Shown here one piece after another: positions 1 to 48,325 of a stretch of 64,000 bases of DNA (position 1 is its first letter; every line of letters starts with the position of its first letter). A program made the position numbers and the translations under genes. This DNA comes from Candidatus Heimdallarchaeum aukensis. GTDB lineage: Archaea; Asgardarchaeota; Heimdallarchaeia; Heimdallarchaeales; Heimdallarchaeaceae. The stretch covers positions 1,120,001 to 1,184,000 of the forward strand of contig CP084166.1 in NCBI GenBank assembly GCA_021513695.1, written 5' to 3'. The notes below the pieces were generated by a model. That model was not told the origin of the DNA. It saw only the letters and a list, made by a program, of their open reading frames with translations, and did no database searches.

Positions 1-559
1 TAAACGTAGGGCAAAGTTACAGTCAATCTATGACAAGCAAGGATTAACCACCTGGGGAAGAAAAATGTTTCAACTCCAGTTAGAACGAATGTGTAAAATC
101 ACCAACTATTTCCATAAAGCAAGTAGAAAAATAGTAGACTATTGTTCAGAAAAAAACATTGATACGATAGTTATAGGTTACAACCCCCGATGGAAACAAG
201 AAGTGATTATGGGTAAAAAGAATAATCAAACCTTTGTTTTTATACCCTTCAAATCGCTAATTGACAAAATCACTTACAAAGCAGAAGAAAAAGGAATAAA
301 AGTTCTTCCTACCGAAGAGTCCTACACCTCTGTCTACAGTTTCTTGGATAATGAAGAGATAGCTTTCCACCTCCATTATGCTGGTAAAAGAATCCATCGT
401 GGACTATTTATCAGTACCAGAGGATTAAAAATTAATGCTGATATCAACTCTGCAGGTAATATCGGTCGCAAAGTATTCCCCACGTTATTCTCTGTTATGT
501 CTAACTACGGGATAGTCTGGGGTGCAGTGGTTCACCCCGTCCGTTGGAAAATAAGTTAG
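1..559 (+). CDS. tnpB: TnpB (IS200/IS605 OrfB family) C-terminal fragment, truncated by window start; copy of 9850..10728
   Basis: Nucleotide and protein near-identity to 10171..10728. RuvC-II E (TEESYTS) and RuvC-III D (ADINSAGNIGRK) motifs are present. The reading frame continues upstream of position 1. Confidence 0.8.
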   Translation, partial: KRRAKLQSIYDKQGLTTWGRKMFQLQLERMCKITNYFHKASRKIVDYCSEKNIDTIVIGYNPRWKQEVIMGKKNNQTFVFIPFKSLIDKITYKAEEKGIKVLPTEESYTSVYSFLDNEEIAFHLHYAGKRIHRGLFISTRGLKINADINSAGNIGRKVFPTLFSVMSNYGIVWGAVVHPVRWKIS

Positions 560-687: not shown

Positions 688-1677
688 TTAAGGTATAAGT
701 CCCCAGAAAAAGGCTTCCAAAAGTTTTGTTTTGAACTCTTTAGTTGTAGAGTAACAGGAAGAGAAGAAAGCTACATTATCGAGTATATCTTGCAAATTGC
801 TGAAAAATGCACCATATTCTACACTTAGCTTTTCAATATCGACGTTATAACGAATCAATACACCTATTTTCTTCAAGTTCTTTTTCTTAAGCAATGAATC
901 CTTGAGTGATTGATATTTCTCTTTCATGATGTCTAGCATCAACAAGAGAACTTCTTGTTCATTAGCAATATCGCTATCAATCTCTTCTAAAGGAATAATT
1001 GAAAACTGGAAAGTTTTAGTTTTTATTATTCCTACCTCATCTTCAAATTTAACAAAGGTAAAAGGTAATGTTAAGAGCAAAGAGGCGAATGAGTTCTTTA
1101 TCTTTTCAACTTCTTTCTTTGAGTAAAGTAGAGCTATTTTTTTAACTTTAGTTTTAAATAATCCTTTACTAATAAGTTCTTTTAGTTCTTGAGTAAGAAG
1201 ATTTGCTTGTGAAACACTTAACAACTCTCTTACAATCCTTTCATATTCGTTAACAATACTTGTCAATAGTTTTTCATCTACTTGATCAATAGATTTAATG
1301 TTATGAAACTTATAAATGAGCAATTTAGCAAACTCTTCTCTAAAATCATCTATTTTGCTTACTATTTCAGGAACAAGACACAATAACAATCCTATGGTTT
1401 TCTTTTTCATTCTTTTATCTTGCATCGTAGGATCGTCAACTAGGAAAGAAAACGCATATTGAACAAATCCTTCAGAGAAGGCAAAAGGGAATGGTCCATA
1501 CAGTTCAGAAGATATTTCATCAATGTCAACTACACCTTGAAAAACAAGTGAATAGGTCATAGCTCCAGAGAACTCAAACTTATCTATTATCTCTTCTTCA
1601 AATTGAGTCTCTTCAGATGTTACCATTTGAGTTAATGCTGGACCTATATCTTCAAGTTTAAACAATGCTATAAGCAT
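688..1677 (-). CDS. hypothetical protein (329 aa), no recognisable domain
   Basis: Long ORF with coding-like composition; no motif recognised. Confidence 0.5.
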   Translation of the reverse strand: MLIALFKLEDIGPALTQMVTSEETQFEEEIIDKFEFSGAMTYSLVFQGVVDIDEISSELYGPFPFAFSEGFVQYAFSFLVDDPTMQDKRMKKKTIGLLLCLVPEIVSKIDDFREEFAKLLIYKFHNIKSIDQVDEKLLTSIVNEYERIVRELLSVSQANLLTQELKELISKGLFKTKVKKIALLYSKKEVEKIKNSFASLLLTLPFTFVKFEDEVGIIKTKTFQFSIIPLEEIDSDIANEQEVLLLMLDIMKEKYQSLKDSLLKKKNLKKIGVLIRYNVDIEKLSVEYGAFFSNLQDILDNVAFFSSCYSTTKEFKTKLLEAFFWGLIP

Positions 1678-1759
1678 AATTATAACTATTTAAAAAAGAA
1701 TATTAAAACTTTACATATGCTTGACCTGTCTGTTTACTCAATAGACCTAGGTTACACTT

Positions 1760-1935
1760 TTGGGCACTAGAGAAACACAGAGGTGATTCATAAGTTTTTT
1801 TCCAGGAGTAGGGAGGTTAAGAGACTAGTGAAGGAGACTAAAATTGTAGTAAGAGCGGTAGAAGGAGAGGTCGGGGGAGCAGTAGGTTAGTCCTAGTCTT
1901 TTCGCTCACGGATGATCATTTACCCTCGTAACCCA
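1760..1935. ncRNA. candidate structured ncRNA (GC-rich island in an AT-rich intergenic region), identity unknown
   Basis: Local GC near 50% against a ~30% background. Long-range complementary segments: AAGAGACTAG at 1816..1825 with CTAGTCTTTT at 1893..1902, and CACTAGAG at 1766..1773 with CTAGTG at 1824..1829. No ORF. Confidence 0.3.
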
Positions 1936-2045
1936 CTTTCTATTTGTTTGTTACCAACGTAGGTAGAGTAAATAGTTCAAAGAAATAAGGCTTTTATTAA
2001 ATAGAGAATCTTTTAGACTATTCTCTATGTAAAAAAAAAAGAAAA

Positions 2046-4817
2046 TTAATTCTTTTTTCTCTTTAGGACTGCTAAGCTAAAGAATGAAAGAATAGTAATA
2101 GTAATAAGAGGATGAAAACTTAAAATCATTGTATTATCATTCGAGGTCGTATTTTCATCTTGGGATTCAACAACTTCAAAAGAATAATAGTTTCCATTAT
2201 TATCTGCAATGGCTTCATTTGGATTAGCAGCAATGTCTACAGCTTTGATATAATATTCTACATAATCTCCAGCGTCTAGAGGACTTAACGTTTTAGTATA
2301 GAGATATCCATCGGAAGAACTCATTGATTTAGCATCCCAAGCTCCACCATTAATTCTTATATAGAGTGTAACTGAAGCGATACCAACATTATCTGTAACC
2401 TCTGCAGAAATTTTTACATAATCTTGAGATGTTGGATTTGAAGGGCTATGAAATACATTTTGGATTGTAGGTTTTTGAGTATCTGGTTCTAATACGGTAA
2501 AAGAGTAATATAGACCATCGTTGTCGTAGGTAATTGTGTTGGAATTTTCTGAATTATCAGCACAAGTAATATAATAATCTATTTTCTCATTTGCTAAAAA
2601 TGATCCTATGTTTTTTGTAAATTTGTTCTGAATTTGAGAATCCACTTCCATTTGTGCTTCATTCCAGGCTGAACCATCAACCCGATAGTACAAAGTAACT
2701 GAAGCTATTCCTGAAGCATCTTCTAAATAAGCTAGAATAGTAACATTTTGACCTTCAAAAGGATCAGCTGGACTATGAGTTATTTCTACAAGCTCAGGAG
2801 GAGTAGAATCTGGTAAAAGTTCAAAGATAGATAGACCAAAAGTTTTCGAACCTACATATACCATTGAATTATTTACAAAAATTGTATCACATTGAGCATA
2901 TCCACCATATTCCCAACCTAAGGAATTGGAACTAGCAATCTTTTCAAGATTTGAAGGGTCAACAGTGACATTAAAGACTTCTAAACCATATCTGAAAGAA
3001 GTTACATAGAGTAGGCCATTTTTATAATAGAAATTAGACGGATAATAATCTGTAAATTCTTTTAGCTTCATTATACTAGTTATATTTGATATATCAAACA
3101 CTTTGAATGATGACCCACATGCAAGATAAAGGTAGTTTCCAACTATTTTAAAGTTAAGAGTATTCTCATTATCGGAGAAATATGATAACACTTGAGGATT
3201 ATATAAATCAGAAACGTTTACGAAAACTAATTCATTGTAATCGTAATACCTGCTTCCAAGAACAACTATATCCCCATATTTATCTATGTCAGTTAAAATC
3301 GCAGAAGATACGCTTATTGAAGAGATTTCGTATGGGGTAGTTGGTTCTGTCATGTTAACAATAAGCAGTTTACCATCTTCGTCAGATACTAAGAATCCAA
3401 TGCCATTTTCAACTACGATATCTTTAATTCTTTTGTGTGTTCCTACAAATTGTCCTATTTTATTTGGACTAAGAGGGTCTGTGATATTCAAAATATCTAT
3501 TCCATCCCAAGATTTTGCAATATAGGCTCTATCATCCTCAACCTCTAGTGCAAAAATCTCTCGATACATACCTTCATTAGTTAAGTATTGAGAAATTATT
3601 TTTGGAGATGAGGGATTTATAACATCAATAAATGTGATATCACCTTCTCCATTTGCGACAACAACATTTGATTTATAAGTAGAAATATCAGTAATCCAAC
3701 CCCATTGGGTAGTAATATCTAAGAGCTCTGGATTGTATATATCGGTAACATTAACTGTTATCAATCCTCCTCCCCCTCCAGCGATGTATGCAAATTGTTG
3801 ATTATATACAATAAGGTCATTAATTCTATTGTATTTAACATTACAACTTGAAATTAAAGTAGGATTCGAAAGAACAGATACATTAAACAATCTCATATCC
3901 ATGTAAGTACAAGTAACATAAAGAATCTGATTTTCAAGGTAAAGCCCCGTCATTCCTGCATAAGGTTCAGAATACTCTCCGATCTTTACGGGATTAGATG
4001 GATTTGTACAATCTAGAATAATGAGATGATCTTGTCTGTCTGCAATATATACGATATCATTATCCGCAATGACATCACAAGCATAACAATTATAAGTTGC
4101 TAATAAAGCTGGTGATGAGGGATTTGAGACATCAAAAATTTTCACGCCTAAATTTTGATCCGCGGCAAATATAGTTGAACCTTCACCTGTGATACTTTGA
4201 GGAAATTCAAAATTACTTGTCATTGCAAGAAATTCAGGATATTGGGGATCAGAAATATCATAAACACAAAGACCTTTGTTAACATCAGTTATATATGCAT
4301 ATGAATCATTTAGATATATAGAAGTGGGTCTTTGTAAACTCGATTCAGAAGCAATGAGTTGTGGATTAGCTAAATCAGTTGACATATCTAGTACAATCAA
4401 TCCCTTTCCATCAACAACTAAGTAAGCATAAGGATAGTCAATCTTTACATCTAAGACACGACCATCAAAATCTAATTCATTAGAGATCGTAGGGTGAATT
4501 TCATTTTCAATATTGAAAATAGTTAATCCCCTTGCATCATTAGCAGCATAGATGTAGTTTCCATATTGTTCAATTGAAATTGTTGTACCTTTGTAATAAG
4601 TAGATAAGTGATTTAGTTCCCGTTTAGGTGCATTTTTTTGTTTTTCAATGTCTTGAAGTTTTATCGTTGTTTTATCTTGTTCCATGCTTGCTCCATCCGT
4701 CAATTTAACTAATTTGGAAGTTTCATCCAACAAATTATTATTTAAATTAGATCCAATAACAAAAATGAAGCTTAAAGCAATTAATTTATAGATTTGGTTC
4801 TTTTTTATAGTTTTCAT
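2046..4817 (-). CDS. LVIVD-repeat beta-propeller surface protein with signal peptide, Ig/PKD-like C-terminal domains and a C-terminal TM anchor
   Basis: N-terminal signal (MKTIKKNQIYKLIALSFIFVIG). Repeated xYxxVxD / GGGGGLITVNVTD motifs typical of LVIVD repeats. Duplicated ASVTLYYRVDG / ASVTLYIRING modules. C-terminus is a Thr/Ser-rich linker, then a TM helix and KRKKN. Confidence 0.7.
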   Translation of the reverse strand: MKTIKKNQIYKLIALSFIFVIGSNLNNNLLDETSKLVKLTDGASMEQDKTTIKLQDIEKQKNAPKRELNHLSTYYKGTTISIEQYGNYIYAANDARGLTIFNIENEIHPTISNELDFDGRVLDVKIDYPYAYLVVDGKGLIVLDMSTDLANPQLIASESSLQRPTSIYLNDSYAYITDVNKGLCVYDISDPQYPEFLAMTSNFEFPQSITGEGSTIFAADQNLGVKIFDVSNPSSPALLATYNCYACDVIADNDIVYIADRQDHLIILDCTNPSNPVKIGEYSEPYAGMTGLYLENQILYVTCTYMDMRLFNVSVLSNPTLISSCNVKYNRINDLIVYNQQFAYIAGGGGGLITVNVTDIYNPELLDITTQWGWITDISTYKSNVVVANGEGDITFIDVINPSSPKIISQYLTNEGMYREIFALEVEDDRAYIAKSWDGIDILNITDPLSPNKIGQFVGTHKRIKDIVVENGIGFLVSDEDGKLLIVNMTEPTTPYEISSISVSSAILTDIDKYGDIVVLGSRYYDYNELVFVNVSDLYNPQVLSYFSDNENTLNFKIVGNYLYLACGSSFKVFDISNITSIMKLKEFTDYYPSNFYYKNGLLYVTSFRYGLEVFNVTVDPSNLEKIASSNSLGWEYGGYAQCDTIFVNNSMVYVGSKTFGLSIFELLPDSTPPELVEITHSPADPFEGQNVTILAYLEDASGIASVTLYYRVDGSAWNEAQMEVDSQIQNKFTKNIGSFLANEKIDYYITCADNSENSNTITYDNDGLYYSFTVLEPDTQKPTIQNVFHSPSNPTSQDYVKISAEVTDNVGIASVTLYIRINGGAWDAKSMSSSDGYLYTKTLSPLDAGDYVEYYIKAVDIAANPNEAIADNNGNYYSFEVVESQDENTTSNDNTMILSFHPLITITILSFFSLAVLKRKKN

Positions 4818-5006
4818 TTATAAAGCACCATTCGTGTACTATTCTATGTTAAATAAATTAGATTATAAAAATATTATGGAAAACTAAATAGTTAAAATGT
4901 TCTATATTTTTTTCTTCATTTGAATATGTTATTATTTTCTTCCACATGTTTCTGTTGGTTAAAATTGCCTTTATAAAAAAGAAAATGAGTGAATATTTAT
5001 CATAAA

Positions 5007-6029
5007 CTATTTTTTCTTTTTCATCAAAATCCATGAAGTCAATGAAAGTAGTATTAGAGAGAAAATAGCACCAATGAACGGAAATGAAGCACTCTCTGCT
5101 AAATTTTCTGGATTTTGAAGTGCATAAATATCATATTCAATTAATGAAATATATGAAGTTAATCCAAAAGCTGGTAACAATGGTGACAAAGAAGCAATTT
5201 TCGCTCCTGTTTCGCTCACAATCTGACTTATTACATTTGCATCAAATTGTGGTTGAACAACAATAGTTTTCACATTTTCTTCTTTCATCTCATTTATTAC
5301 ATTCTGTATATGCTCGGGACTGGGCTCTGTTTCATGTTGTTCTTCAATTATTGCAACTCTTTCAATACCTAAAAGATCAAAAAGATACATAAAAGAGGGG
5401 TGATGTACAACAACTTTCATTCCTTCAACTTCAGGTCTGTATTCATCATTTATTCTTTTTATTAAGTCATCAAGATCATACAGATAGTTATCTCTATTAG
5501 AGAGGTATTTTTCTTCATTTTCAGGGTCTAAGGAAATAATTGTTGTAGTAATATTTTTCACAAAACTTTTTGCATATATTGGACTCATCCATACATGAGG
5601 ATTAAGAAAACTCTCATCTGCTGCAGGATCCTCTCTCATTATACTCTCATTAGCCAATGTAATAACTACCAAATTAGGATTATCTTCTAATATTGAATCC
5701 ATAGCTGAAGAAAGCCAAGATTCTAGTCCTTCTATCCCTAAACGTATGAGAACATCTGCTTCTGAAAGCAATTCTCGTTCTTGAGTAGTCATTTCATATG
5801 TATGAGGATCTTCAAGACCAGAAACAATAGAGATAGGAGTGAACAAACCTTTCCCAATTTCATAAGCCCAATTTTGTACTATACCTATAGTTGTAACGAC
5901 GTTTAAAGTGTCATTAGGGTCAAATTCTTGTTTTTGCAGTGCTAAAGCGAGATTCCTCTCAGTATTAAGATTTGCGAACATTAACGCTGTGAAGAATAAG
6001 AGAAAAGCCATCATTCTTTTTTTATTCAT
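5007..6029 (-). CDS. znuA: metal (Mn/Zn) ABC transporter substrate-binding protein, ZnuA/TroA family, with C-terminal TM anchor
   Basis: TroA/ZnuA-like fold signatures (DPHTYEMT, HVWMSP, VVHHPSFMYL). N-terminal signal and C-terminal hydrophobic segment plus KKKK. Divergent to the dtxR-znuBC genes. Confidence 0.75.
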   Translation of the reverse strand: MNKKRMMAFLLFFTALMFANLNTERNLALALQKQEFDPNDTLNVVTTIGIVQNWAYEIGKGLFTPISIVSGLEDPHTYEMTTQERELLSEADVLIRLGIEGLESWLSSAMDSILEDNPNLVVITLANESIMREDPAADESFLNPHVWMSPIYAKSFVKNITTTIISLDPENEEKYLSNRDNYLYDLDDLIKRINDEYRPEVEGMKVVVHHPSFMYLFDLLGIERVAIIEEQHETEPSPEHIQNVINEMKEENVKTIVVQPQFDANVISQIVSETGAKIASLSPLLPAFGLTSYISLIEYDIYALQNPENLAESASFPFIGAIFSLILLSLTSWILMKKKK

Positions 6030-9349: not shown

Positions 9350-10845
9350 AATTATGAAGTTATAGAAAAAGTTGAAAAAAGAAGAAAGAAAGGGAGAGGA
9401 AAGAAAGCGGAGGAGAGAGGAAAGGAGGGAAAATGAGGAGTTTAAATAGTGAAAAAAAGTAAAAATGAATGAATGAGAAAATGAGGAAAAAGGTGTGGCG
9501 AACTGAGGAAATATGGGGGAAAGAATCGATCACTCTAAAGCAGTTGGCACACCAGGTAAAAAACTTGTATAATCAAGCAAATTACATTATTAAGTATCAG
9601 TTAAGAAAAAGTAAATATTTCACGAGAGAGTTCGAACTGATGAATATTTTAAGGTATCACCCGACCTACACAGCACTACCTGGTCATACGGCACAACAGA
9701 CGATAAAGTTTCTATGTTTAGCGTGGAAAGGGTATTTTAGGTCTTTAGAAGAATGCAAAAAAGAACCAGAAAAGTTTAATGGTAAACCCCGTCCTCCAAA
9801 ATAGAAGAAGAAAGATGGACTTGCTATAATCTATTTTACTAACTCTCAAGTGAAAATTAAAGAAGAAAAAGAGCAAGAAAAAGAAAAATTTTTTATCTCT
9901 TTCCCTAAACGTGTAGGACTAAAGATAGTTACAAGACTGTGTCCTTCAACGAAAGTGAAGTTTGCCCGTCTTATACCTATGGGAACGAAATTTAAATTAG
10001 AGATAGTTTACGAGAAAGAGATAGAAGAACGAAAAAAACGACATGCAGAAAGAGTTCTAGCTCTTGATCTGGGAGTGAATAACCTTGTAGGCGGGTTAAC
10101 CACTATTCCTGGTGAAAAAGGTTTTCTGATAAATGGTAGACCCATTAAAGCTGTTAATCAGTGGTTTAATAAACGTAGGGCAAAATTACAGTCAATCTAT
10201 GACAAGCAAGGATTAAACACCTGGGGAAGAAAAATGCTTACTCTCCAGTTAGAACGAATGTGTAAAATAGCTGACTATTTCCATAAAGCAAGTAGGAAGA
10301 TAATAGACTACTGTTTAGAAAAAAACATTGATACGATAGTTATAGGTTACAACCCCAGATGGAAACAGAAAGTGAATATGGGAAAGAAAAATAACCAAAC
10401 CTTTGTTTTTATCCCCTTTAAATCCCTCATTGATAAAATCACTTACAAAGCAGAAGAAAAAGGGATAAAAGTTATTCCTACCGAAGAGTCCTACACCTCT
10501 GTCTGCAGTTTCTTAGATAATGAAGAGATAGCTTTTCACCCCCATTATGCTGGCAAAAGAACTCACCGTGGACTGTTCATCAGTACCAGAGGATTAAAAA
10601 TTAATGCTGATATCAACTCTGCAGGTAATATCGGTCGCAAAGTATTCCCCACGTTATTCTCTGTTATGTTTAACTACGGGATAGTCTGGGCTGCAGTGGT
10701 TCACCCCGTCCGTTGGAAAATAAGTTAGCAAGTTAAGTTAGTCCAGCTCTTATGCTGTTCTTTCTCTTTCTTTTTTTCCACCGACTAAACTTCCTCCTCC
10801 TTCCGATTTTTAATCTAAATCGGAATTTAGGAAAAAGTAAACCAT
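9350..10845 (+). mobile_element. IS200/IS605-family (IS1341-like) element carrying only tnpB; copy 2 (complete)
   Basis: TnpB N- and C-terminal regions are present. GA-rich leader at 9380..9460. The 3' ~120 nt beyond the tnpB stop are conserved with copy 1, including a subterminal hairpin at 10803..10823. Homology ends at 10845. No tnpA. The left boundary is not determinable from one copy. Confidence 0.7.
9469..10728 (+). pseudogene. tnpB: tnpB interrupted by a single in-frame TAG (9802..9804); N-part 9469..9804 and RuvC part 9850..10728 are in the same frame
   Basis: Both ORFs are in frame 1 and separated only by a TAG. The N-part has the typical TnpB helical N-terminus ending GKPRPPK. The C-part has RuvC-I D (LALDLGVNN), RuvC-II E (TEESYTS) and RuvC-III D (ADINSAGNI). 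The zinc-finger cysteines are degenerate. Confidence 0.75.
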
Positions 10846-15765: not shown

Positions 15766-16425
15766 TTAAACTATCTTTACCCATCTGGGTTCATACTCAT
15801 ATTTTGCAAATTTCACTCTTATTAGCTGAGTTGGACCTTTTTCTAGGTCATCTTCTCTTCTTGTTTCAACCATCATATCGGCAATACTATGAAGAGAACG
15901 CTCTATTTGCTCATCCATTACGCCTTTGTCCAATACTAGTAAAGCACATTGGTTTCTAAGTCTAATTCTAGCTGCAACAGTTTGGATAAAATTAATCACT
16001 TGCATGGGATCATTATAGAGCATTAATAGAGAAAATTGATCAAAAACTATTCTTAACTTATCACTCTGTTGAGAACGCTCGTTAATACTTACAGAAATTG
16101 ACAACAGATCATTTGCTTTCTCAACAATTATGGTATTAGGCGTTTTCTCTTTGGGTAGGGCCCTAAATGAAAAAACATCAATAAAATTTAATCTTCCTTT
16201 CTCTATATGTTCGTCTATGTTATCTATACGCTTTTTTAGAATATTGAGTGTATCAAGAGCAGAGTTAGCATATAATACTAAAAGAACAGAATCACCATTA
16301 TTCAATCCATCTTCTATGAATCTGTACATCATTTCTCTTTTAGACGTACCAGATTCTCCTGTCATTAAAATGAGTGAGGAATCTATGGATCGTGTTAAGA
16401 TATCTATTCTTGTTTTAACTGACAT
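15766..16425 (-). CDS. KaiC-like RecA-superfamily ATPase, single domain
   Basis: P-loop-like MTGESGTSKREM and KaiC/RadA-like fold length (~220 aa). Confidence 0.55.
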   Translation of the reverse strand: MSVKTRIDILTRSIDSSLILMTGESGTSKREMMYRFIEDGLNNGDSVLLVLYANSALDTLNILKKRIDNIDEHIEKGRLNFIDVFSFRALPKEKTPNTIIVEKANDLLSISVSINERSQQSDKLRIVFDQFSLLMLYNDPMQVINFIQTVAARIRLRNQCALLVLDKGVMDEQIERSLHSIADMMVETRREDDLEKGPTQLIRVKFAKYEYEPRWVKIV

Positions 16426-27495: not shown

Positions 27496-27570
27496 TTGGT
27501 AGTCCCCAGGAGATTTGAACTCCTGCCCCCGGATCCAGAGTCCGGGATCCTTGCCACTAGACTAGGGGAC
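27496..27570 (-). tRNA. tRNA-Gln (anticodon CTG), CCA encoded
   Basis: Cloverleaf with A1:U72, 7-bp acceptor stem, anticodon stem CCGGA/TCCGG and loop CUCUGGA. T-arm AGGAG-TTCAAAT-CTCCT. 3' end GGGGACT-A-CCA. Confidence 0.9.
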
Positions 27571-27606
27571 TCTAAATTACAAGCGGTAACAAAGGATTGG
27601 AAAAGA

Positions 27607-27681
27607 TGGTAGTCCCCAGGAGATTCGAACTCCTGCCACCGGATTCAAAGTCCGGAATCCTTGCCGCTAGACTAGGGGACT
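27607..27681 (-). tRNA. tRNA-Gln (anticodon TTG), CCA encoded
   Basis: Same scaffold as the neighbour, with anticodon loop CUUUGAA, T-loop TTCGAAT and D-loop AGCGGCAA. A1:U72. Confidence 0.9.
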
Positions 27682-27751: not shown

Positions 27752-29266
27752 ATGCTTTATAAACTATTAAATTTTTTTGATTTTTTTCGACTTTTTTCTT
27801 TTTTTCTTTCTCTCATTCTTTTTCCTTATCAAAAAATAAATAAGAGTAAACTTACATTTTATATTATTATGCTTATAAAAACTGGTATTAATGAGCTTGA
27901 CCAGATGATTGATGGTGGTTTACGTACCCATTATTGTTATTCTATCAAGGGTTCTGCTGGTGCTGGTAAGACTGTTTTATCTATTTTTCTTGCTTGGGGT
28001 GCTCTCAATCAGGACATCCCTGTTGTTTTTATTAGTACTGAGATTGAACCTGATCGTATTATTCATTATTTTCACTCTTTTGGTCTTCCTGTTGAGGACT
28101 ACATTGACCGAGGGTTATTAGTCATTGATAAGATGTCTTTGAAGTCTTCTGGTGAGGAGATTATCCAGACTAACAGTTTTGATTTATCAGGTATTATTTT
28201 ACGTGTTACTAAGAAGATTGAGCGTATTCGAGCTAAGTTGGTTATTTTTGATTCTCTTTCTGCTTTTATTGCTGACTTTGAGTATAAAGACACTGCCCGT
28301 AGTAAGTATATTGATTTTATTAAGCGCATTACTAGTTTAGATACTTCTTTAATTATTACTATTGAGTGTGACCCTATTACTAGCAGTTCTCAGATTGACT
28401 ATTTAGTTGACGGTGTTATTGCTTTAAAGACCGAATTAATCAACAATCAGCTAATCAAGAAGATTTCTGTTCCTAAATTAAGAGAAGCCAAGCCTTTAGT
28501 TTATGAAAACCGTTATACTATTACTCAGAAAGGTTTTAGGATTTTCAAATCTGAGAGCGAGCCTTTGTTTACCGTTGATCGTTCTACTGGTATTAAGGTT
28601 TTGGACAATCTTTTAGGTGGAGGTATTGCTCGAGGTTCTGTTGTTTTAGTTGAGATCAATGGTGAGATTAATTATTTTCCTTTCTTCTTGACTCTTCTTT
28701 ACAATTATTTAACTCTAAACCATGGTGTTATCATTCATTCCAATGTTCAGATGAATGTTAATCGTATTTTGGAGGAGTTTGAGCGAGGTCAGTGTGACAT
28801 TTCTGACTACTTACGTGATGGTAATATTGTCTTTTTGGATAAGTACAATCGTTCTGTCACTGCTGTTGAAGCTAAAGAGATTCGTGATATGATTAACTTA
28901 GATGACATGTTAGCTATTACTGTTGAGATGATGCAGGCTTTTGGTTCTGACACTGAAGTTGTTGTTTTTGGTGATCTTACTGATGATGTTAACATTTTGA
29001 ATGAGCGTGATTTCTTAAAATTGTTTGCTCTTCAGTCTTACAACATTAAGGAGCATAATGCTATTTCCTTTTCTTTTATCAATTACAATGCTGTTGACAA
29101 AAAAATTCTCGCTCGTTTACGTACCACCTCTGATGTTATCATTCGTTTATCGCGTGAAAATTATTCTAACTACATTGAATGTTTGAAGAGCACTACTGGT
29201 GCTACATTTCTTGCTAAGAATATTGAATTTAAAAAAAGTTATCCTATGATTGAAATTGTTGAGTGA
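27752..29266 (+). CDS. KaiC-like tandem RecA-superfamily ATPase (N-domain with Walker A, degenerate C-domain); true start possibly at 27869 (MLIKTGINELDQ)
   Basis: GINELDQMIDGGL...IKGSAGAGKT (Walker A) in domain 1. Domain 2 (GIKVLDNLLGGGIARGSVVLVEINGE) lacks a P-loop. The first ~39 codons of the ORF are low-complexity and hydrophobic. Confidence 0.7.
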   Translation: MLYKLLNFFDFFRLFSFFLSLILFPYQKINKSKLTFYIIMLIKTGINELDQMIDGGLRTHYCYSIKGSAGAGKTVLSIFLAWGALNQDIPVVFISTEIEPDRIIHYFHSFGLPVEDYIDRGLLVIDKMSLKSSGEEIIQTNSFDLSGIILRVTKKIERIRAKLVIFDSLSAFIADFEYKDTARSKYIDFIKRITSLDTSLIITIECDPITSSSQIDYLVDGVIALKTELINNQLIKKISVPKLREAKPLVYENRYTITQKGFRIFKSESEPLFTVDRSTGIKVLDNLLGGGIARGSVVLVEINGEINYFPFFLTLLYNYLTLNHGVIIHSNVQMNVNRILEEFERGQCDISDYLRDGNIVFLDKYNRSVTAVEAKEIRDMINLDDMLAITVEMMQAFGSDTEVVVFGDLTDDVNILNERDFLKLFALQSYNIKEHNAISFSFINYNAVDKKILARLRTTSDVIIRLSRENYSNYIECLKSTTGATFLAKNIEFKKSYPMIEIVE

Positions 29267-29275
29267 GGAAGTATT

Positions 29276-29524
29276 ATGCACAAGATTTTATACTTCAAGA
29301 GCAAAACTTGTAACTGGTGTCCTTTTGTCGAATCGATTTTAAAGAAGATTGTTTCTGAAAAATCTACTTTAGAGTTAGAAGTTATTGATATTGAAGAAAA
29401 TTATGAAATCGCTGAAAAGTATAATATTATCGCTGTTCCTACTATTATTCTTCCTAACTCTACTAAAATTGTTGGTGCTACCGATGAAACTTTTCTACGC
29501 CAGCAGTTATCATTTTTTTTGTGA
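29276..29524 (+). CDS. thioredoxin/glutaredoxin-like small redox protein (CNWC active site)
   Basis: 82 aa with a CxxC (CNWCP) at the start of helix 1 and a cis-Pro-like AVPT motif. Confidence 0.6.
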   Translation: MHKILYFKSKTCNWCPFVESILKKIVSEKSTLELEVIDIEENYEIAEKYNIIAVPTIILPNSTKIVGATDETFLRQQLSFFL

Positions 29525-29641
29525 TTGGTGAGAACTGCTTTCTTTTTGTTCTTTTTTTTGGTAAATTGTTTTTTTCGTTCTTTAATTCTACTTTCATCTC
29601 TATAAGAAAACTCTTTAAATTCTTTTCTTTTTTGTAAATTA

Positions 29642-32266
29642 ATGACTTGGTCCTTAAATGATTCAAAGCTTATCTATGGTGTTGATCAAAACGATCTTTA
29701 TTTTTTAGATATTAATGATCAAGGTGAACTTTTACTTAAGCTTAAGGATCAATCTATTTCTTTTAATGAAATCATCAATCTTGTTAAGTCTCAGTTTAAC
29801 TCTTCTTCTCTCTCTTCTGTTCCTTCATTTACTCTTCGCATTCCTCAATTAATAACTGAACAAATTTCCAAACTTAACACTTGTTTCCAGTCTGCTATTC
29901 ATCAATATCAATATTCTGGCAATTTTCAAGGCATCTATCCTATTAAAGTTAATTCTTTGAGTTATGTTCTTGAAACTATTAAAGCGAACAGTCCTTCCTA
30001 TGCTTTTGAAGCTGGAACTGTTAATGAATTAGATGTTTTGCTTTCTCTTCTTCGTGATGATAAAACTCGTATGATAATGTGTAACGGTGTTAAAGATTCA
30101 GACTATATAGATAAGATTAGAGGAGCTCTTAACGATGGTTATTCTATTGTTATTAGTTTGGAGTCATGCTCTGAGTCTACTACCATTCTTGATTTAATAG
30201 ACCATGATTTACTTAAACTTGCTTTGAGAATCAAACCCTATCCCACTGTTAAATCTCATTGGGGAAGTTCTTCTGGTCGCGATTCTAAATTTGGTTTATC
30301 TATTCATGAATTTAAGCGCATTATTAATTTGTTAGAAAAAAGAGGAGTAAAGGATAAAGTTATTGCTATTCACGCTCATCCTGGTTCTCAGATTATTGAT
30401 ATTGATGGTTTAAGGTTCTTTGTTCTGTATCTTTCAAACAGGTATTTAGAACTTAAGCGTCTTGGTTTCACCAACCTTAACAATATAGACTTTGGTGGAG
30501 GTATACCTATTAATTATGATAATAGGTTACCCTCTGACATTTTAGATAATTATGTTAAAACGCTTGTATTAACTCTAAAAGAGACTATCACCGATTCTGA
30601 CGTTCAACCTAATATTTGGATTGAAGCAGGAAGGTTTCTTACTGCTCCCTCTTCCTTAATTATTGTTGAAACTATTGCTCTTTACTCTATTTTCCCCTCT
30701 GAAGAGAGTTTAAATGACCATAAGGCTATGATTAGCTCAATGCTTGAAAAAATCACTCATCCTTCTTCGATACTTAATTTATTTTCTCATTGGACTGAAT
30801 TACAATCTCCTACAATCGACTCAAATGTTAACGAAATCTTGAAGACTGAAATTTTGATGAAACACTTAAAATTAGCTATCAGAGAAAAAATGATGAATTT
30901 TGATGATGAGCAAAAGTTCAACAGGATTTTTGATTTAGATTTGGATGAGATATTCTATGAGATTTATTCCCCTGAACATATCTTAATCGGTAATTTCAGT
31001 GTTTTCAATACTATTATTGATTGGTTACTTGTTGGTCAATATTTTCCTATTCTTCCTATAGACAATCTTGATCATCAACCTGTTTCTTTAGCTAGATTGG
31101 TGGATAAAACATGTGATTCTGATGGTGAGATATCTATTTACCATCCTGTCTTTAATGAAGAAAAGATTTTGTATACCAAGGATGGTTTTCCATTAACAGT
31201 CAAAGACAAGAAATTTAATCTCATGGGCTTTCCTATTGGTTGTTTGCCTACTAATTTCCCATATTATTTAGTTATTGCTTTAACAGGTGCCTACCAAGAT
31301 AACATTAAGATGCATCACAATCTAATTGAGCCATTAAGTAGTATTATTATCAAGCATGAGAATGGGCAGTGGACTATTACTAGCAGTTCTCAGATTGACT
31401 ATTTAGTTGACGGTGTTATTGCTTTAAAGACCGAATTAATCAACAATCAGCTAATCAAGAAGATTTCTGTTCCTAAATTAAGAGAAGCCAAGCCTTTAGT
31501 TTATGAAAACCGTTATACTATTACTCAGAAAGGTTTTAGGATTTTCAAATCTGAGAGCGAGCCTTTGTTTACCGTTGATCGTTCTACTGGTATTAAGGTT
31601 TTGGACAATCTTTTAGGTGGAGGTATTGCTCGAGGTTCTGTTGTTTTAGTTGAGATCAATGGTGAGATTAATTATTTTCCTTTCTTCTTGACTCTTCTTT
31701 ACAATTATTTAACTCTAAACCATGGTGTTATCATTCATTCCAATGTTCAGATGAATGTTAATCGTATTTTGGAGGAGTTTGAGCGAGGTCAGTGTGACAT
31801 TTCTGACTACTTACGTGATGGTAATATTGTCTTTTTGGATAAGTACAATCGTTCTGTCACTGCTGTTGAAGCTAAAGAGATTCGTGATATGATTAACTTA
31901 GATGACATGTTAGCTATTACTGTTGAGATGATGCAGGCTTTTGGTTCTGACACTGAAGTTGTTGTTTTTGGTGATCTTACTGATGATGTTAACATTTTGA
32001 ATGAGCGTGATTTCTTAAAATTGTTTGCTCTTCAGTCTTACAACATTAAGGAGCATAATGCTATTTCCTTTTCTTTTATCAATTACAATGCTGTTGACAA
32101 AAAAATTCTCGCTCGTTTACGTACCACCTCTGATGTTATCATTCGTTTATCGCGTGAAAATTATTCTAACTACATTGAATGTTTGAAGAGCACTACTGGT
32201 GCTACATTTCTTGCTAAGAATATTGAATTTAAAAAAAGTTATCCTATGATTGAAATTGTTGAGTGA
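29642..32266 (+). CDS. chimeric ORF: biosynthetic arginine decarboxylase (SpeA-like) residues 1..~579 fused in frame to the C-terminal half of the KaiC-like ATPase; a product of the tandem duplication
   Basis: The N-part is identical to 32644..34375 (SpeA). The C-part is identical to 28374..29266 (KaiC-like C-domain). The junction is at 31373/31374. Confidence 0.6.
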   Translation: MTWSLNDSKLIYGVDQNDLYFLDINDQGELLLKLKDQSISFNEIINLVKSQFNSSSLSSVPSFTLRIPQLITEQISKLNTCFQSAIHQYQYSGNFQGIYPIKVNSLSYVLETIKANSPSYAFEAGTVNELDVLLSLLRDDKTRMIMCNGVKDSDYIDKIRGALNDGYSIVISLESCSESTTILDLIDHDLLKLALRIKPYPTVKSHWGSSSGRDSKFGLSIHEFKRIINLLEKRGVKDKVIAIHAHPGSQIIDIDGLRFFVLYLSNRYLELKRLGFTNLNNIDFGGGIPINYDNRLPSDILDNYVKTLVLTLKETITDSDVQPNIWIEAGRFLTAPSSLIIVETIALYSIFPSEESLNDHKAMISSMLEKITHPSSILNLFSHWTELQSPTIDSNVNEILKTEILMKHLKLAIREKMMNFDDEQKFNRIFDLDLDEIFYEIYSPEHILIGNFSVFNTIIDWLLVGQYFPILPIDNLDHQPVSLARLVDKTCDSDGEISIYHPVFNEEKILYTKDGFPLTVKDKKFNLMGFPIGCLPTNFPYYLVIALTGAYQDNIKMHHNLIEPLSSIIIKHENGQWTITSSSQIDYLVDGVIALKTELINNQLIKKISVPKLREAKPLVYENRYTITQKGFRIFKSESEPLFTVDRSTGIKVLDNLLGGGIARGSVVLVEINGEINYFPFFLTLLYNYLTLNHGVIIHSNVQMNVNRILEEFERGQCDISDYLRDGNIVFLDKYNRSVTAVEAKEIRDMINLDDMLAITVEMMQAFGSDTEVVVFGDLTDDVNILNERDFLKLFALQSYNIKEHNAISFSFINYNAVDKKILARLRTTSDVIIRLSRENYSNYIECLKSTTGATFLAKNIEFKKSYPMIEIVE

Positions 32267-32275
32267 GGAAGTATT

Positions 32276-32524
32276 ATGCACAAGATTTTATACTTCAAGA
32301 GCAAAACTTGTAACTGGTGTCCTTTTGTCGAATCGATTTTAAAGAAGATTGTTTCTGAAAAATCTACTTTAGAGTTAGAAGTTATTGATATTGAAGAAAA
32401 TTATGAAATCGCTGAAAAGTATAATATTATCGCTGTTCCTACTATTATTCTTCCTAACTCTACTAAAATTGTTGGTGCTACCGATGAAACTTTTCTACGC
32501 CAGCAGTTATCATTTTTTTTGTGA
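32276..32524 (+). CDS. thioredoxin-like protein, duplicate copy
   Basis: Identical to 29276..29524. Confidence 0.6.
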   Translation: MHKILYFKSKTCNWCPFVESILKKIVSEKSTLELEVIDIEENYEIAEKYNIIAVPTIILPNSTKIVGATDETFLRQQLSFFL

Positions 32525-32643
32525 TTGGTGAGAACTGCTTTCTTTTTTTTGTTCTTTTTTTGGTAAATTGTTTTTTTCGTTCTTTAATTCTACTTTCATC
32601 TCTATAAGAAAACTCTTTAAATTCTTTTCTTTTTTGTAAATTA

Positions 32644-34401
32644 ATGACTTGGTCCTTAAATGATTCAAAGCTTATCTATGGTGTTGATCAAAACGATCTT
32701 TATTTTTTAGATATTAATGATCAAGGTGAACTTTTACTTAAGCTTAAGGATCAATCTATTTCTTTTAATGAAATCATCAATCTTGTTAAGTCTCAGTTTA
32801 ACTCTTCTTCTCTCTCTTCTGTTCCTTCATTTACTCTTCGCATTCCTCAATTAATAACTGAACAAATTTCCAAACTTAACACTTGTTTCCAGTCTGCTAT
32901 TCATCAATATCAATATTCTGGCAATTTTCAAGGCATCTATCCTATTAAAGTTAATTCTTTGAGTTATGTTCTTGAAACTATTAAAGCGAACAGTCCTTCC
33001 TATGCTTTTGAAGCTGGAACTGTTAATGAATTAGATGTTTTGCTTTCTCTTCTTCGTGATGATAAAACTCGTATGATAATGTGTAACGGTGTTAAAGATT
33101 CAGACTATATAGATAAGATTAGAGGAGCTCTTAACGATGGTTATTCTATTGTTATTAGTTTGGAGTCATGCTCTGAGTCTACTACCATTCTTGATTTAAT
33201 AGACCATGATTTACTTAAACTTGCTTTGAGAATCAAACCCTATCCCACTGTTAAATCTCATTGGGGAAGTTCTTCTGGTCGCGATTCTAAATTTGGTTTA
33301 TCTATTCATGAATTTAAGCGCATTATTAATTTGTTAGAAAAAAGAGGAGTAAAGGATAAAGTTATTGCTATTCACGCTCATCCTGGTTCTCAGATTATTG
33401 ATATTGATGGTTTAAGGTTCTTTGTTCTGTATCTTTCAAACAGGTATTTAGAACTTAAGCGTCTTGGTTTCACCAACCTTAACAATATAGACTTTGGTGG
33501 AGGTATACCTATTAATTATGATAATAGGTTACCCTCTGACATTTTAGATAATTATGTTAAAACGCTTGTATTAACTCTAAAAGAGACTATCACCGATTCT
33601 GACGTTCAACCTAATATTTGGATTGAAGCAGGAAGGTTTCTTACTGCTCCCTCTTCCTTAATTATTGTTGAAACTATTGCTCTTTACTCTATTTTCCCCT
33701 CTGAAGAGAGTTTAAATGACCATAAGGCTATGATTAGCTCAATGCTTGAAAAAATCACTCATCCTTCTTCGATACTTAATTTATTTTCTCATTGGACTGA
33801 ATTACAATCTCCTACAATCGACTCAAATGTTAACGAAATCTTGAAGACTGAAATTTTGATGAAACACTTAAAATTAGCTATCAGAGAAAAAATGATGAAT
33901 TTTGATGATGAGCAAAAGTTCAACAGGATTTTTGATTTAGATTTGGATGAGATATTCTATGAGATTTATTCCCCTGAACATATCTTAATCGGTAATTTCA
34001 GTGTTTTCAATACTATTATTGATTGGTTACTTGTTGGTCAATATTTTCCTATTCTTCCTATAGACAATCTTGATCATCAACCTGTTTCTTTAGCTAGATT
34101 GGTGGATAAAACATGTGATTCTGATGGTGAGATATCTATTTACCATCCTGTCTTTAATGAAGAAAAGATTTTGTATACCAAGGATGGTTTTCCATTAACA
34201 GTCAAAGACAAGAAATTTAATCTCATGGGCTTTCCTATTGGTTGTTTGCCTACTAATTTCCCATATTATTTAGTTATTGCTTTAACAGGTGCCTACCAAG
34301 ATAACATTAAGATGCATCACAATCTAATTGAGCCATTAAGTAGTATTATTATCAAGCATGAGAATGGGCAGTGGAATGTTTTATATTATAGAGATAAATA
34401 A
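32644..34401 (+). CDS. speA: biosynthetic arginine decarboxylase (SpeA; PLP-dependent fold-III decarboxylase)
   Basis: YPIKVN, HAHPGSQI and DFGGG motifs characteristic of SpeA. About 585 aa. Confidence 0.8.
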   Translation: MTWSLNDSKLIYGVDQNDLYFLDINDQGELLLKLKDQSISFNEIINLVKSQFNSSSLSSVPSFTLRIPQLITEQISKLNTCFQSAIHQYQYSGNFQGIYPIKVNSLSYVLETIKANSPSYAFEAGTVNELDVLLSLLRDDKTRMIMCNGVKDSDYIDKIRGALNDGYSIVISLESCSESTTILDLIDHDLLKLALRIKPYPTVKSHWGSSSGRDSKFGLSIHEFKRIINLLEKRGVKDKVIAIHAHPGSQIIDIDGLRFFVLYLSNRYLELKRLGFTNLNNIDFGGGIPINYDNRLPSDILDNYVKTLVLTLKETITDSDVQPNIWIEAGRFLTAPSSLIIVETIALYSIFPSEESLNDHKAMISSMLEKITHPSSILNLFSHWTELQSPTIDSNVNEILKTEILMKHLKLAIREKMMNFDDEQKFNRIFDLDLDEIFYEIYSPEHILIGNFSVFNTIIDWLLVGQYFPILPIDNLDHQPVSLARLVDKTCDSDGEISIYHPVFNEEKILYTKDGFPLTVKDKKFNLMGFPIGCLPTNFPYYLVIALTGAYQDNIKMHHNLIEPLSSIIIKHENGQWNVLYYRDK

Positions 34402-46199: not shown

Positions 46200-46460
46200 A
46201 TGGAAAACCAAAAAGGCAAAATTCCTATATTTCAAGTTGATGCTTTCACTGATAAAGCCTTTCAAGGCAATCCTGCAGCTGTTTGTATCTTAGAAGAAAA
46301 ATACTCTTTTTCTGATTCTTTACTACAAAAAATAGCTCAAGAAATGAATCTTTCTGAAACAGCTTTTATTTACGTGAAAGATCTAGATCAAATTACTAAC
46401 CAAAGTGAGTTCAGGTTACGTTGGTTTACCCCAAATAAAGAAGTCAAAATGTGTGGACAT
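46200..46460 (+). pseudogene. phzF-family (phenazine-biosynthesis-like isomerase) gene, 5' part, interrupted by IS insertion after ...KMCGH
   Basis: IPIFQVDAFTDKAFQGNPAAVC...AFIY...RWFTP..EVKMCGH, then PhzF homology stops. It resumes at 48326 with (H)ATLASAAVLF. Confidence 0.75.
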
Positions 46461-48325
46461 GATTTACTTTTTTACGTAAAGTTTTTCACACTCTGTCTTG
46501 CAAGAGAGAAAACTAAAGGAAGTTTAATCTCTTGAACTCAACCAAGCCATACAATGCCATGAAGGGGTTGAGACAGACATCATACACGAATCGTGGGAAT
46601 CATAAAGAAGAATAGAAAGTTTTTCTTTCTTTTCTTCACTCCACGAGAGACAAAAAAGAAAGAAAGAAAGAAAGAATTACTCCTATAATAGAGAAGGAGT
46701 TACTTTCCTTTTTGTCTACTGGGACTGCAACCAATGGCTGAGCCCTCGGCAAACAGTGAAATGGGAAGAACTGAACCTTTGACCAGTGAGGTAATCAGTG
46801 ATAGTTGTTCCTCGAGGACGAAAAAGAGCACCAAGGAACTTACGAGCGATATTCATTGCCCCTGTGAGGTCAGAGTGGAAAGTGTAGTTACAGGAAGAAC
46901 AATGAACTAAACCTCTAACGGGACGGATAACTTTTCTCCCACAACGAGCACAGTAAGAAGATGTCCCTCTTTCTCCTATTGTTAATATTCGGTGAGGTTC
47001 AAAACCTCGAAGTATCAATGCTCGACGAAGAAGAGCAAGAACAAGAGAAAAGTTCCACTGATGAAGTTTCCTGCGAAACTTACGAGTACTTTTACCTTTT
47101 CCTTTCTCCTCGCGAACATGTTTAGGGTAACCTACAACGACGAAAAGGTCATACATTCGCGCATAGGTCTCTATCGTCTGCACAACCTCACTTATAAATT
47201 GGTGAATATATGCTCGTTTAACGTTTCTATATCTTCTTCGGAGGAGACTAAGAAAACGATAAACTTGATGTTTTTTACCCGACTGGTCATTTAAAGCTGC
47301 TTTCCTCTGAAGACGGGAAAGTTTGAGTTTATATCTATGATTGACTCTATTCCACTGTTTGGTATACCAAAATTTTATCTCTTTACTTGTTAATTTCTTT
47401 TTAGGGGTTAGTAACACTCCTGTAGCAGGAATGTTTATACCTAGATCTATTCCCAGCACAGCTGGGGGAAGAGAAGAAGAACTTTTTTCTTTAGTAGGAT
47501 AAAAAGAAGGAGGAGGAAGAACTCTTAGTTGGAAATACACCCACCATTCAAGTGTAGAACGTTTATATCTTAGTTCTAAACTTTTTATTCGTCCTTTCTT
47601 TAATTCCTTCTGGTGGAAAGTGCTCATCTCTAAAGGTAACCATAGTTTCTGATGATAAGGTGTGTTTCTTTTCCATGTATCTAACGAGTCTCTTATCCCC
47701 ACCCACCAACGAGTGAGAGTGTTATTCTTCTCTTTAGGTAGATGGACGAGAACGAACCTCTTTGCATTAATTAGTTGTCTTCTTGCTCTCTTTATGGGTG
47801 GACGAGTATTATTAGGTCTATACCCTTGTTCATATAACTGTACGGCTATATCTCTACACTCTTGAAATTCGTTGTGGGAACAATAAGGGAACATTTTCTT
47901 CAGATCGTGAGGGACATTCTTTCTTCTCTCTTCTTCTTTAACTTTGGAAGTAGTTAGCGTCAGTTCATCTAGTTTTCCTCTATGCACTCTTATTTTCCCT
48001 TTTTTAGTTTTAGTACATATTTTTCTTCTGTTATGATGTATAATTCTCACATATTTTTCTATTATCCTCGTATCTCTTCCCGTTATTCTCCTTAACCTTT
48101 CCTTCTTCCTCGTCGTCAATACCTCCTTCTTTATTCTCACTTTCAAGGTTTTGACGACGTCCTCCACCATCTTTCTCTTTTCTCCTTCTTTCCTCTTTTT
48201 TTGTTTCTTCTTCTCTTTTTTTTATTATACTTTTTTCCCTATAAAAACCCCTCTCCTTCCTCTCCTCTCTTCTCTTTTTTTTTTATTTTGCTGTCAACAA
48301 CTGTAAACTACGTAAAAAATAGACG
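46461..48325 (-). mobile_element. IS200/IS605-family (IS1341-like, solo tnpB) element inserted into phzF-like gene; no target duplication
   Basis: The original target reconstructs as GGACATG|CAACCC. The element is bounded by ATTTACTTTTTTACGTAAAG... at the left and ...AACTACGTAAAAAATAGACG at the right (short imperfect inverted ends around ACGT). Subterminal hairpins are at 46540..46568 (CTCAACC...GGTTGAG) and 46495..46506 (CTCTTGCAAGAG). Confidence 0.75.
46716..48170 (-). CDS. tnpB: TnpB (RNA-guided RuvC-like nuclease, IS605 OrfB family), second unrelated family with intact zinc finger
   Basis: RuvC-I LGIDLGINIPATG, zinc finger CARCGRKV...CSSCNYTFHSD, RuvC-III DLTGAMNIARK. 484 aa. Confidence 0.8.
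   Translation of the reverse strand: MVEDVVKTLKVRIKKEVLTTRKKERLRRITGRDTRIIEKYVRIIHHNRRKICTKTKKGKIRVHRGKLDELTLTTSKVKEEERRKNVPHDLKKMFPYCSHNEFQECRDIAVQLYEQGYRPNNTRPPIKRARRQLINAKRFVLVHLPKEKNNTLTRWWVGIRDSLDTWKRNTPYHQKLWLPLEMSTFHQKELKKGRIKSLELRYKRSTLEWWVYFQLRVLPPPSFYPTKEKSSSSLPPAVLGIDLGINIPATGVLLTPKKKLTSKEIKFWYTKQWNRVNHRYKLKLSRLQRKAALNDQSGKKHQVYRFLSLLRRRYRNVKRAYIHQFISEVVQTIETYARMYDLFVVVGYPKHVREEKGKGKSTRKFRRKLHQWNFSLVLALLRRALILRGFEPHRILTIGERGTSSYCARCGRKVIRPVRGLVHCSSCNYTFHSDLTGAMNIARKFLGALFRPRGTTITDYLTGQRFSSSHFTVCRGLSHWLQSQ

Follow-up and report, generated by a model that had tools for sequence, protein, structure and literature searches.

A segment of about 3.0 kb is present twice, head to tail, in a 64,000-nt stretch of the Candidatus Heimdallarchaeum aukensis genome (contig CP084166.1, positions 1,120,001–1,184,000 of the forward strand; the whole stretch is referred to here as the window, and coordinates are given in its numbering). 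The repeated unit consists of the 3′ part of a gene for a KaiC-like ATPase, a thioredoxin gene (trx) and the 5′ 1.7 kb of a gene for a SpeA-like arginine decarboxylase (speA), and at the point where the copies meet an open reading frame (ORF) fuses SpeA to the C-terminal part of the KaiC-like protein. A repeat search and pairwise alignment place the two copies directly next to each other with 0 substitutions, in agreement with the tandem duplication claimed in a preliminary description of this DNA, and a perfect repeat of 3 kb cannot be due to chance. We consider it probable that the repeat is a genuine and very recent tandem duplication in the Ca. H. aukensis PM71 population of an ethane/sulfate enrichment. 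The two copies and the novel junction between them are as follows:

28374–31373, plus strand: duplication unit copy 1, 3000 nt, with codons 209–504 of the kaiC-like gene, trx, the trx–speA intergenic region and speA codons 1–577.
31374–34375, plus strand: duplication unit copy 2, 3002 nt, differing from copy 1 only by insertions and deletions in T-runs.
31373–31374, plus strand: novel junction, …GGGCAGTGGA / CTATTACTAGC…, blunt, falling after the first codon position in each parental gene.

The duplication stands in the public record, in which the 874-aa fusion protein (UJG41782.1, K9W45_04795) and the intact 585-aa decarboxylase (UJG41784.1, K9W45_04805) are found as exact matches, and the deposited Ca. 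H. aukensis genome is closed (3,081,793 bp). Evidence independent of the deposited sequence comes from the Logan assembly of run SRR15988954. Logan assemblies are based on a k=31 graph of distinct 31-mers, from which singleton k-mers are discarded and which is simplified with Minia3, and their FASTA headers carry the mean k-mer abundance (PMC12424806). Three contigs of this assembly cover the locus, all of them 100% identical to the window:

Contig SRR15988954_159 (L019): ends at window position 28403, 30 nt into the unit (unit start +29).
Contig SRR15988954_9443 (L007): 28374–31373, 3000 nt, exactly the unit.
Contig SRR15988954_10170 (L013): begins at 34346 and includes the final 30 nt of the unit (unit end −29).

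Copy 1 is identical across its whole length to the second of these contigs. At both unit ends the contigs overlap by k−1 = 30 nt, which means that two different neighbours exist in the reads for the opening 30-mer of the unit and likewise for its closing one; a repeat or loop bounded at these positions leaves breaks of just this kind in a graph. A single-copy assembly running straight through the locus was not seen, the breaks falling at 28403, 28374, 31373 and 34346. One join of the unit end to the unit start would account for both branch points at once, and the same join would account for the copies abutting without an extra base in the deposited assembly. Because the graph breaks exactly at both unit ends, a plain untrimmed overlap between contigs is unlikely. 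A control is provided by the other end of SRR15988954_10170 (46487), which lies about 230 nt from an ORF of the TnpB/IS605 family (46716–48170, minus strand) that is presumably repeated, so that contig ends here mark repeats. The exact unit length of 3000 nt is a coincidence of biology and not a pipeline parameter; an origin from a software setting, or from a repeat planted in the sequence, was considered and rejected, given that the independent contig is also 3000 nt long and the proteins are in GenBank.

Judged from the related contigs available for comparison, the duplication is specific to the H. aukensis genome or population. The sister species Ca. H. endolithica PR6 (L001) has kaiC, trx and speA once, in the same order and free of internal repeats; its DNA is 85–89% identical to that of the window and collinear with it from kaiC on, over about 16 kb. 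Closer relatives, environmental contigs with 97–99% identity to the window, are present in JGI, ENA and Logan assemblies, and two contigs (L004 and L006), about 97% identical, cross both unit boundaries without interruption and with one copy each. The idea that the duplication is common to related contigs was rejected: 0 of them end at a unit boundary, and one (L010) that begins 14 nt upstream of the unit start has left-flank sequence there. A scan of metagenomes for the 26 nt that close the unit returned a single contig (L003), which belongs to a related strain (95.6% identity over the contig), retains the native boundary on the right and is uninformative on the junction.

We hypothesize that a 3000-nt segment, reaching from inside the KaiC-like gene to 8 codons before the speA stop, was joined end to start, and that the join was formed without homology, by illegitimate recombination. 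Comparison of the flanks with the unit ends (left flank ...GTGACC, unit end ...AGTGGA, unit start CTATTA, right flank ATGTTT) gives 0 nt of exact microhomology at the junction, which replaces the 1–2 nt given earlier. The parental kaiC-like gene and speA would both have been kept intact in such an event, once each, and the gain would be a further trx and a single fusion at the join point. The breakpoints would lie at arbitrary intragenic positions, as a duplication predicts, and the dosage of trx and of the arginine decarboxylase catalytic domains may be raised up to two-fold. Since there are zero substitutions between the copies, the event is either very young or the copies have been homogenised by recombination. 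Two copies are the minimum that an assembler would write for such a loop, and the copy number is thus a predicted one. Perfect direct repeats of 3 kb are recombinationally unstable, and heterogeneity is to be expected, as with bacterial duplications. Because a 3-kb repeat is readily lost by homologous recombination, this one is either very recent in an expanding enrichment population or maintained by something.

Five ORFs of the locus are involved:

27869–29266, plus strand: intact KaiC-like ATPase, 465 aa, K9W45_04785 (PF06745, E=5e-43); the mechanically called ORF starts at 27752 (504 aa).
29276–29524, plus strand: thioredoxin copy 1, 82 aa, CNWC motif (PF13192/PF00085).
29642–32266, plus strand: chimeric ORF, 874 aa, K9W45_04795, with SpeA residues 1–577, Thr and KaiC-like residues 209–504; the KaiC part is without a P-loop.
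32276–32524, plus strand: thioredoxin copy 2, with a protein identical to that of copy 1.
32644–34401, plus strand: intact SpeA-like pyridoxal phosphate (PLP)-dependent arginine decarboxylase, 585 aa, K9W45_04805 (PF02784, above cut-off).

Because each breakpoint separates codon positions 1 and 2, the fusion is in frame, which bears out the earlier claim of an in-frame SpeA–KaiC ORF; the ORF is also annotated in GenBank. SpeA contributes 577 residues to it and not about 579 as first thought, followed by one new Thr codon and by residues 209–504 of the 504-aa KaiC-like ORF, which correspond to residues 170–465 in the numbering of the 465-aa annotated protein. The junction peptide of the 874-aa chimera reads …KHENGQWTITSSSQ…. 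The NCBIfam model for biosynthetic arginine decarboxylase aligns with residues 2–574 of the 585-aa protein (E=1e-89, 301.8 bits), and the chimera thus retains the entire SpeA-homologous region. Its KaiC fragment, made up of the last third of domain 1 and a degenerate domain 2, is predicted to have no ATPase activity on its own. The chimera would accordingly be seen as a nearly complete speA behind its native upstream region, carrying a putatively inert KaiC tail of 297 residues. A search of 5.8 billion proteins (E<=0.001) with a junction-centred peptide of 141 aa gave no match and is uninformative, as the parental proteins were missed too: nothing was returned although a protein at least 90% identical (P0005, a 90% cluster representative) is in the same collection, and negative results with such short queries are untrustworthy.

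Several points weigh against a genuine duplication. The join is blunt (0 nt of homology), as a concatenation of contigs would also leave it. Spontaneous duplications in prokaryotes mostly use repeats or microhomology, which is usual and not obligatory. The junction itself was observed in no read or contig; the expected unitig would be about 60 nt long and Logan lists only contigs >150 nt, so that the support consists of contig boundaries. Moreover, the assignment of SRR15988954 to DNA sample FW4588, as its unamplified Illumina run, is deduced from the identity of the flanks (100% across 12 kb of each flanking contig, which are 12.1 and 17.6 kb long) and from the accession neighbourhood, not from metadata. 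Finally, the route by which the deposited genome was assembled, metaSPAdes followed by LRScaf with Nanopore reads derived from multiple displacement amplification (MDA) and by Pilon, is one by which repeats can be created or distorted. Illumina paired-end reads (PE150) were assembled with metaSPAdes, and the result was scaffolded in two LRScaf rounds with Nanopore reads and polished with Pilon at 346x; the Illumina library was prepared with the NEBNext Ultra kit and MDA is reported for the Nanopore libraries only (PMC8813620). The duplication is not mentioned in that source paper of the genome (PMC8813620).

The deposited sequence probably does contain one error at this locus. In the alignment, the two copies differ solely in two adjacent T-runs of the trx–speA spacer:

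Near 29543–29552, plus strand: copy-1 version of the T-run pair, CTTTC-T5-G-TTC-T8-GG.
Near 32543–32555, plus strand: copy-2 version of the T-run pair, CTTTC-T8-G-TTC-T7-GG.

The T5…T8 arrangement of copy 1 matches the raw-read contig and all related environmental contigs that reach the tract (7/7), and the T8…T7 arrangement of copy 2 is seen in the deposited assembly only. The copy-2 tract thus probably entered the deposited record by mistake, during polishing or gap filling. Copy 1 may have come from the Illumina graph, and copy 2 may have been filled with Nanopore sequence and incompletely polished, or mis-corrected by Pilon under ambiguous mapping. The homopolymer differences of copy 2 fit gap-filled or mis-polished sequence whether the duplication is real or not. 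The T-run difference, if real, could alter read-through from trx into the intact speA. Of the two possibilities raised in the preliminary description, a recent duplication or an assembly artefact, the duplication is favoured by the breaks in the raw-read graph, and the artefact probably applies to the copy-2 T-tract; the count of exactly two copies and their frequency in the population are assembler-dependent as well.

The spacer as a whole (29525–29641 and 32525–32643) consists of one oligo-T run after another (T8, T5, T8, T7). Two unrelated short-read assemblies (L005 and L008) stop in or just before the T-tract, which suggests that the region is hard to sequence or assemble. Oligo-T runs placed just 3′ of a stop codon are typical terminators in archaea, and the trx–speA spacer is plausibly both such a terminator and a stretch that is difficult for sequencing and assembly.

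Alternative explanations differ in how much of the junction they accept. The junction may be real and yet stem from a subpopulation in the minority, from a higher-order amplification or from an excised circle of 3.0 kb, with the assembler's traversal of the loop having written two copies. We hold this to be possible, if rather unlikely. In a de Bruijn graph, the order left flank–unit–unit–right flank (L-U-U-R), the order L-U-R together with a circular U, and mixed copy numbers give one and the same signature, and the instability of perfect 3-kb direct repeats makes heterogeneity likely. Also, the organism rose from 0.03% to 4–7% of the community in 9 months, which favours jackpots of single lineages. 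However, the junction would have had to outlive the removal of low-coverage edges in both metaSPAdes and Minia3, suggesting that it is not rare.

A more far-reaching proposal accepts the duplication and adds selection to it. In an adaptive amplification, the enrichment would select for agmatine/polyamine synthesis through speA together with the neighbouring thioredoxin, so that the unstable 3-kb repeat is kept, and the SpeA–KaiC fusion, if expressed, would be a newborn multidomain gene. This is clearly unlikely. If true, the newborn-gene reading would place the origin of the fusion in the archaeal lineage closest to eukaryotes.

It is very unlikely that the repeat was produced by assembly or scaffolding, in which case the chromosome would have one copy, LRScaf or manual closing would have concatenated contigs bearing the unit or filled a gap with Nanopore sequence, and the graph branches would stem from another replicon or strain. 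Such an origin would be in keeping with a pipeline that combined metaSPAdes and two LRScaf rounds using short MDA-derived Nanopore reads before Pilon, and with the blunt 0-nt join, which is what the concatenation of contigs cut at graph vertices yields. The copy-2 homopolymer differences, which look Nanopore-like or mis-polished and are missing from the raw-read contig and all relatives, point the same way, as does the single-copy state of all relatives. However, a single-copy locus without a second context would assemble through, and the raw-read graph breaks at both unit ends; a second context that is identical over exactly 3000 nt, from the middle of kaiC to 8 codons before the speA stop, would be contrived. 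In addition, a scan of viral contigs found none with the junction or with SpeA relatives and thus no sign of the unit on a virus, and Pilon at 346x kept the junction.

A library artefact, in which a chimeric fragment linking 31373 to 28374 arose by ligation, template switching in the polymerase chain reaction (PCR) or MDA and was duplicated enough to enter the graphs, is extremely improbable: Logan drops only singleton k-mers, so that a PCR-duplicated chimera could in principle pass, and MDA was applied to the same DNA sample for the Nanopore libraries, but it is rare for a random chimera to link, in direct orientation, two points of one genome that are separated by 3 kb, MDA yields inverted chimeras for the most part, the junction outlived error and edge removal in two assemblers, and the Illumina library is not reported to have been amplified by MDA.

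The proteins encoded at the duplicated locus appear to be divergent relatives of the families after which they are named, and their activities are predicted. The 585-aa SpeA-like protein stays under both SpeA equivalog cut-offs of NCBIfam (NF003763 / TIGR01273; 301.8 bits vs 369, and 283.5 vs 624). In a species-level genome scan for SpeA-type decarboxylases, the sole match besides the sister Heimdallarchaeum is a metagenome-assembled genome (MAG) of the Bacteroidota (L002), with 29% identity. The KaiC-like protein has a single Walker A motif (GSAGAGKT), which lies in the N-domain only, at residue 67 of the 504-aa ORF, and the second domain is degenerate and without a P-loop. It scores 145 bits against the circadian KaiC models NF006799 / TIGR02655, below their cut-off of 408, and K9W45_04785 is, on these family scores, a KaiC-like or RAD55-family ATPase of predicted activity and not a clock protein. 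The 504-aa ORF would add a Phe/Leu-rich N-terminal extension of 39 residues (27752–27868), which is uncalled in GenBank and in most related MAGs and is likely not translated. The 82-aa thioredoxin falls under the cut-off of the MJ0307-family thioredoxin model. The idea that this protein partners the KaiC-like ATPase in the manner of KaiB was considered and rejected, as the KaiB scores are under the cut-offs and the protein has the CNWC redox motif. A second, short ATPase gene of the KaiC-like / MEDS / DUF835 type lies about 12 kb upstream (15766–16425, minus strand) and is unrelated to the duplication.

The surroundings of the duplication show variation of their own. A tandem pair of tRNA genes, tRNA-Gln(CTG)/tRNA-Gln(TTG), is located just upstream of the kaiC-like gene (27497–27681, minus strand), and synteny with H. 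endolithica is also lost at this pair. One of the environmental contigs (L004, positions 728–5609) has about 4.9 kb of extra DNA between the tRNA-Gln pair and kaiC, encoding a leucine-rich repeat (LRR) protein and three proteins without a family match; L005 and L008 likewise have extra genes upstream of kaiC, L004 being the clearest case. By comparison of these contigs, the tRNA-Gln region looks like a strain-variable integration hot spot adjoining the duplication. Further away, the window contains three TnpB / IS605-OrfB (Cas12f-like TNB) ORFs (65–559, plus strand; 9850–10728, plus strand; and 46716–48170, minus strand), two of which have 3′ ends that are about 90% identical and lie 10.17 kb apart (repeats 1–682 vs 10170–10845). 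About 180 nt from the third of these ORFs is a PhzF-like gene truncated to 111 aa (46200–46535), and the Logan contig end at 46487 falls there.

Very few heimdallarchaeial genomes are closed, and that of Ca. H. aukensis, which is one of them, is widely used for comparisons that concern eukaryogenesis. K9W45_04795 should hence not be taken as an evolved 'arginine decarboxylase–KaiC' architecture, nor the second trx as an old paralogue, because both stem from one very young duplication or, less likely, from an assembly problem. For users of the reference genome, the locus is a caution that combines a spurious-looking fusion, a duplicated trx and a probable homopolymer error, and the public reads suffice to make it a test case. 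If the duplication is real and frequent, it provides a small and clean case, in an Asgard archaeon, of homology-independent duplication with join-point gene fusion.

Tandem segmental duplication and amplification in Salmonella and E. coli have reportedly been worked out by Anderson, Roth, Andersson and Hughes, together with the innovation–amplification–divergence model. Like such prokaryotic tandem duplications, the H. aukensis repeat consists of head-to-tail copies of a few kb with the parental genes retained, one novel join and copies that are identical, as young ones are; it is also absent from close relatives and would raise the dosage of the enclosed genes. In contrast to the usual case, the join has neither a repeat nor microhomology, and the host is an uncultured Asgard archaeon known from an enrichment metagenome. 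The locus also shares features with untrimmed-overlap or repeat-expansion artefacts of hybrid assemblies, namely identical abutting copies, a blunt join, homopolymer differences in one copy and a pipeline that included a scaffolder. However, unlike with an untrimmed overlap, the raw-read assembly branches exactly at both unit ends, which a single-copy locus does not explain.

For the fusion itself, the closest parallels are join-point fusions, of which those of the his operon in Salmonella are said to have been described by Anderson and Roth in 1978; in Drosophila, chimeric genes arise at duplication breakpoints. As in join-point fusions, the hybrid ORF is in frame and combines the 5′ part of the distal gene with the 3′ part of the proximal gene behind the upstream region of the distal gene. 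Unlike in typical join-point fusions, the SpeA part is essentially complete (577/585 aa), and the predicted product resembles a tagged second SpeA and not a new function. Taken as a duplication, the H. aukensis locus shows a tandem duplication and join-point fusion of the textbook type, in a host that is unusual, and does not represent a new kind of system.

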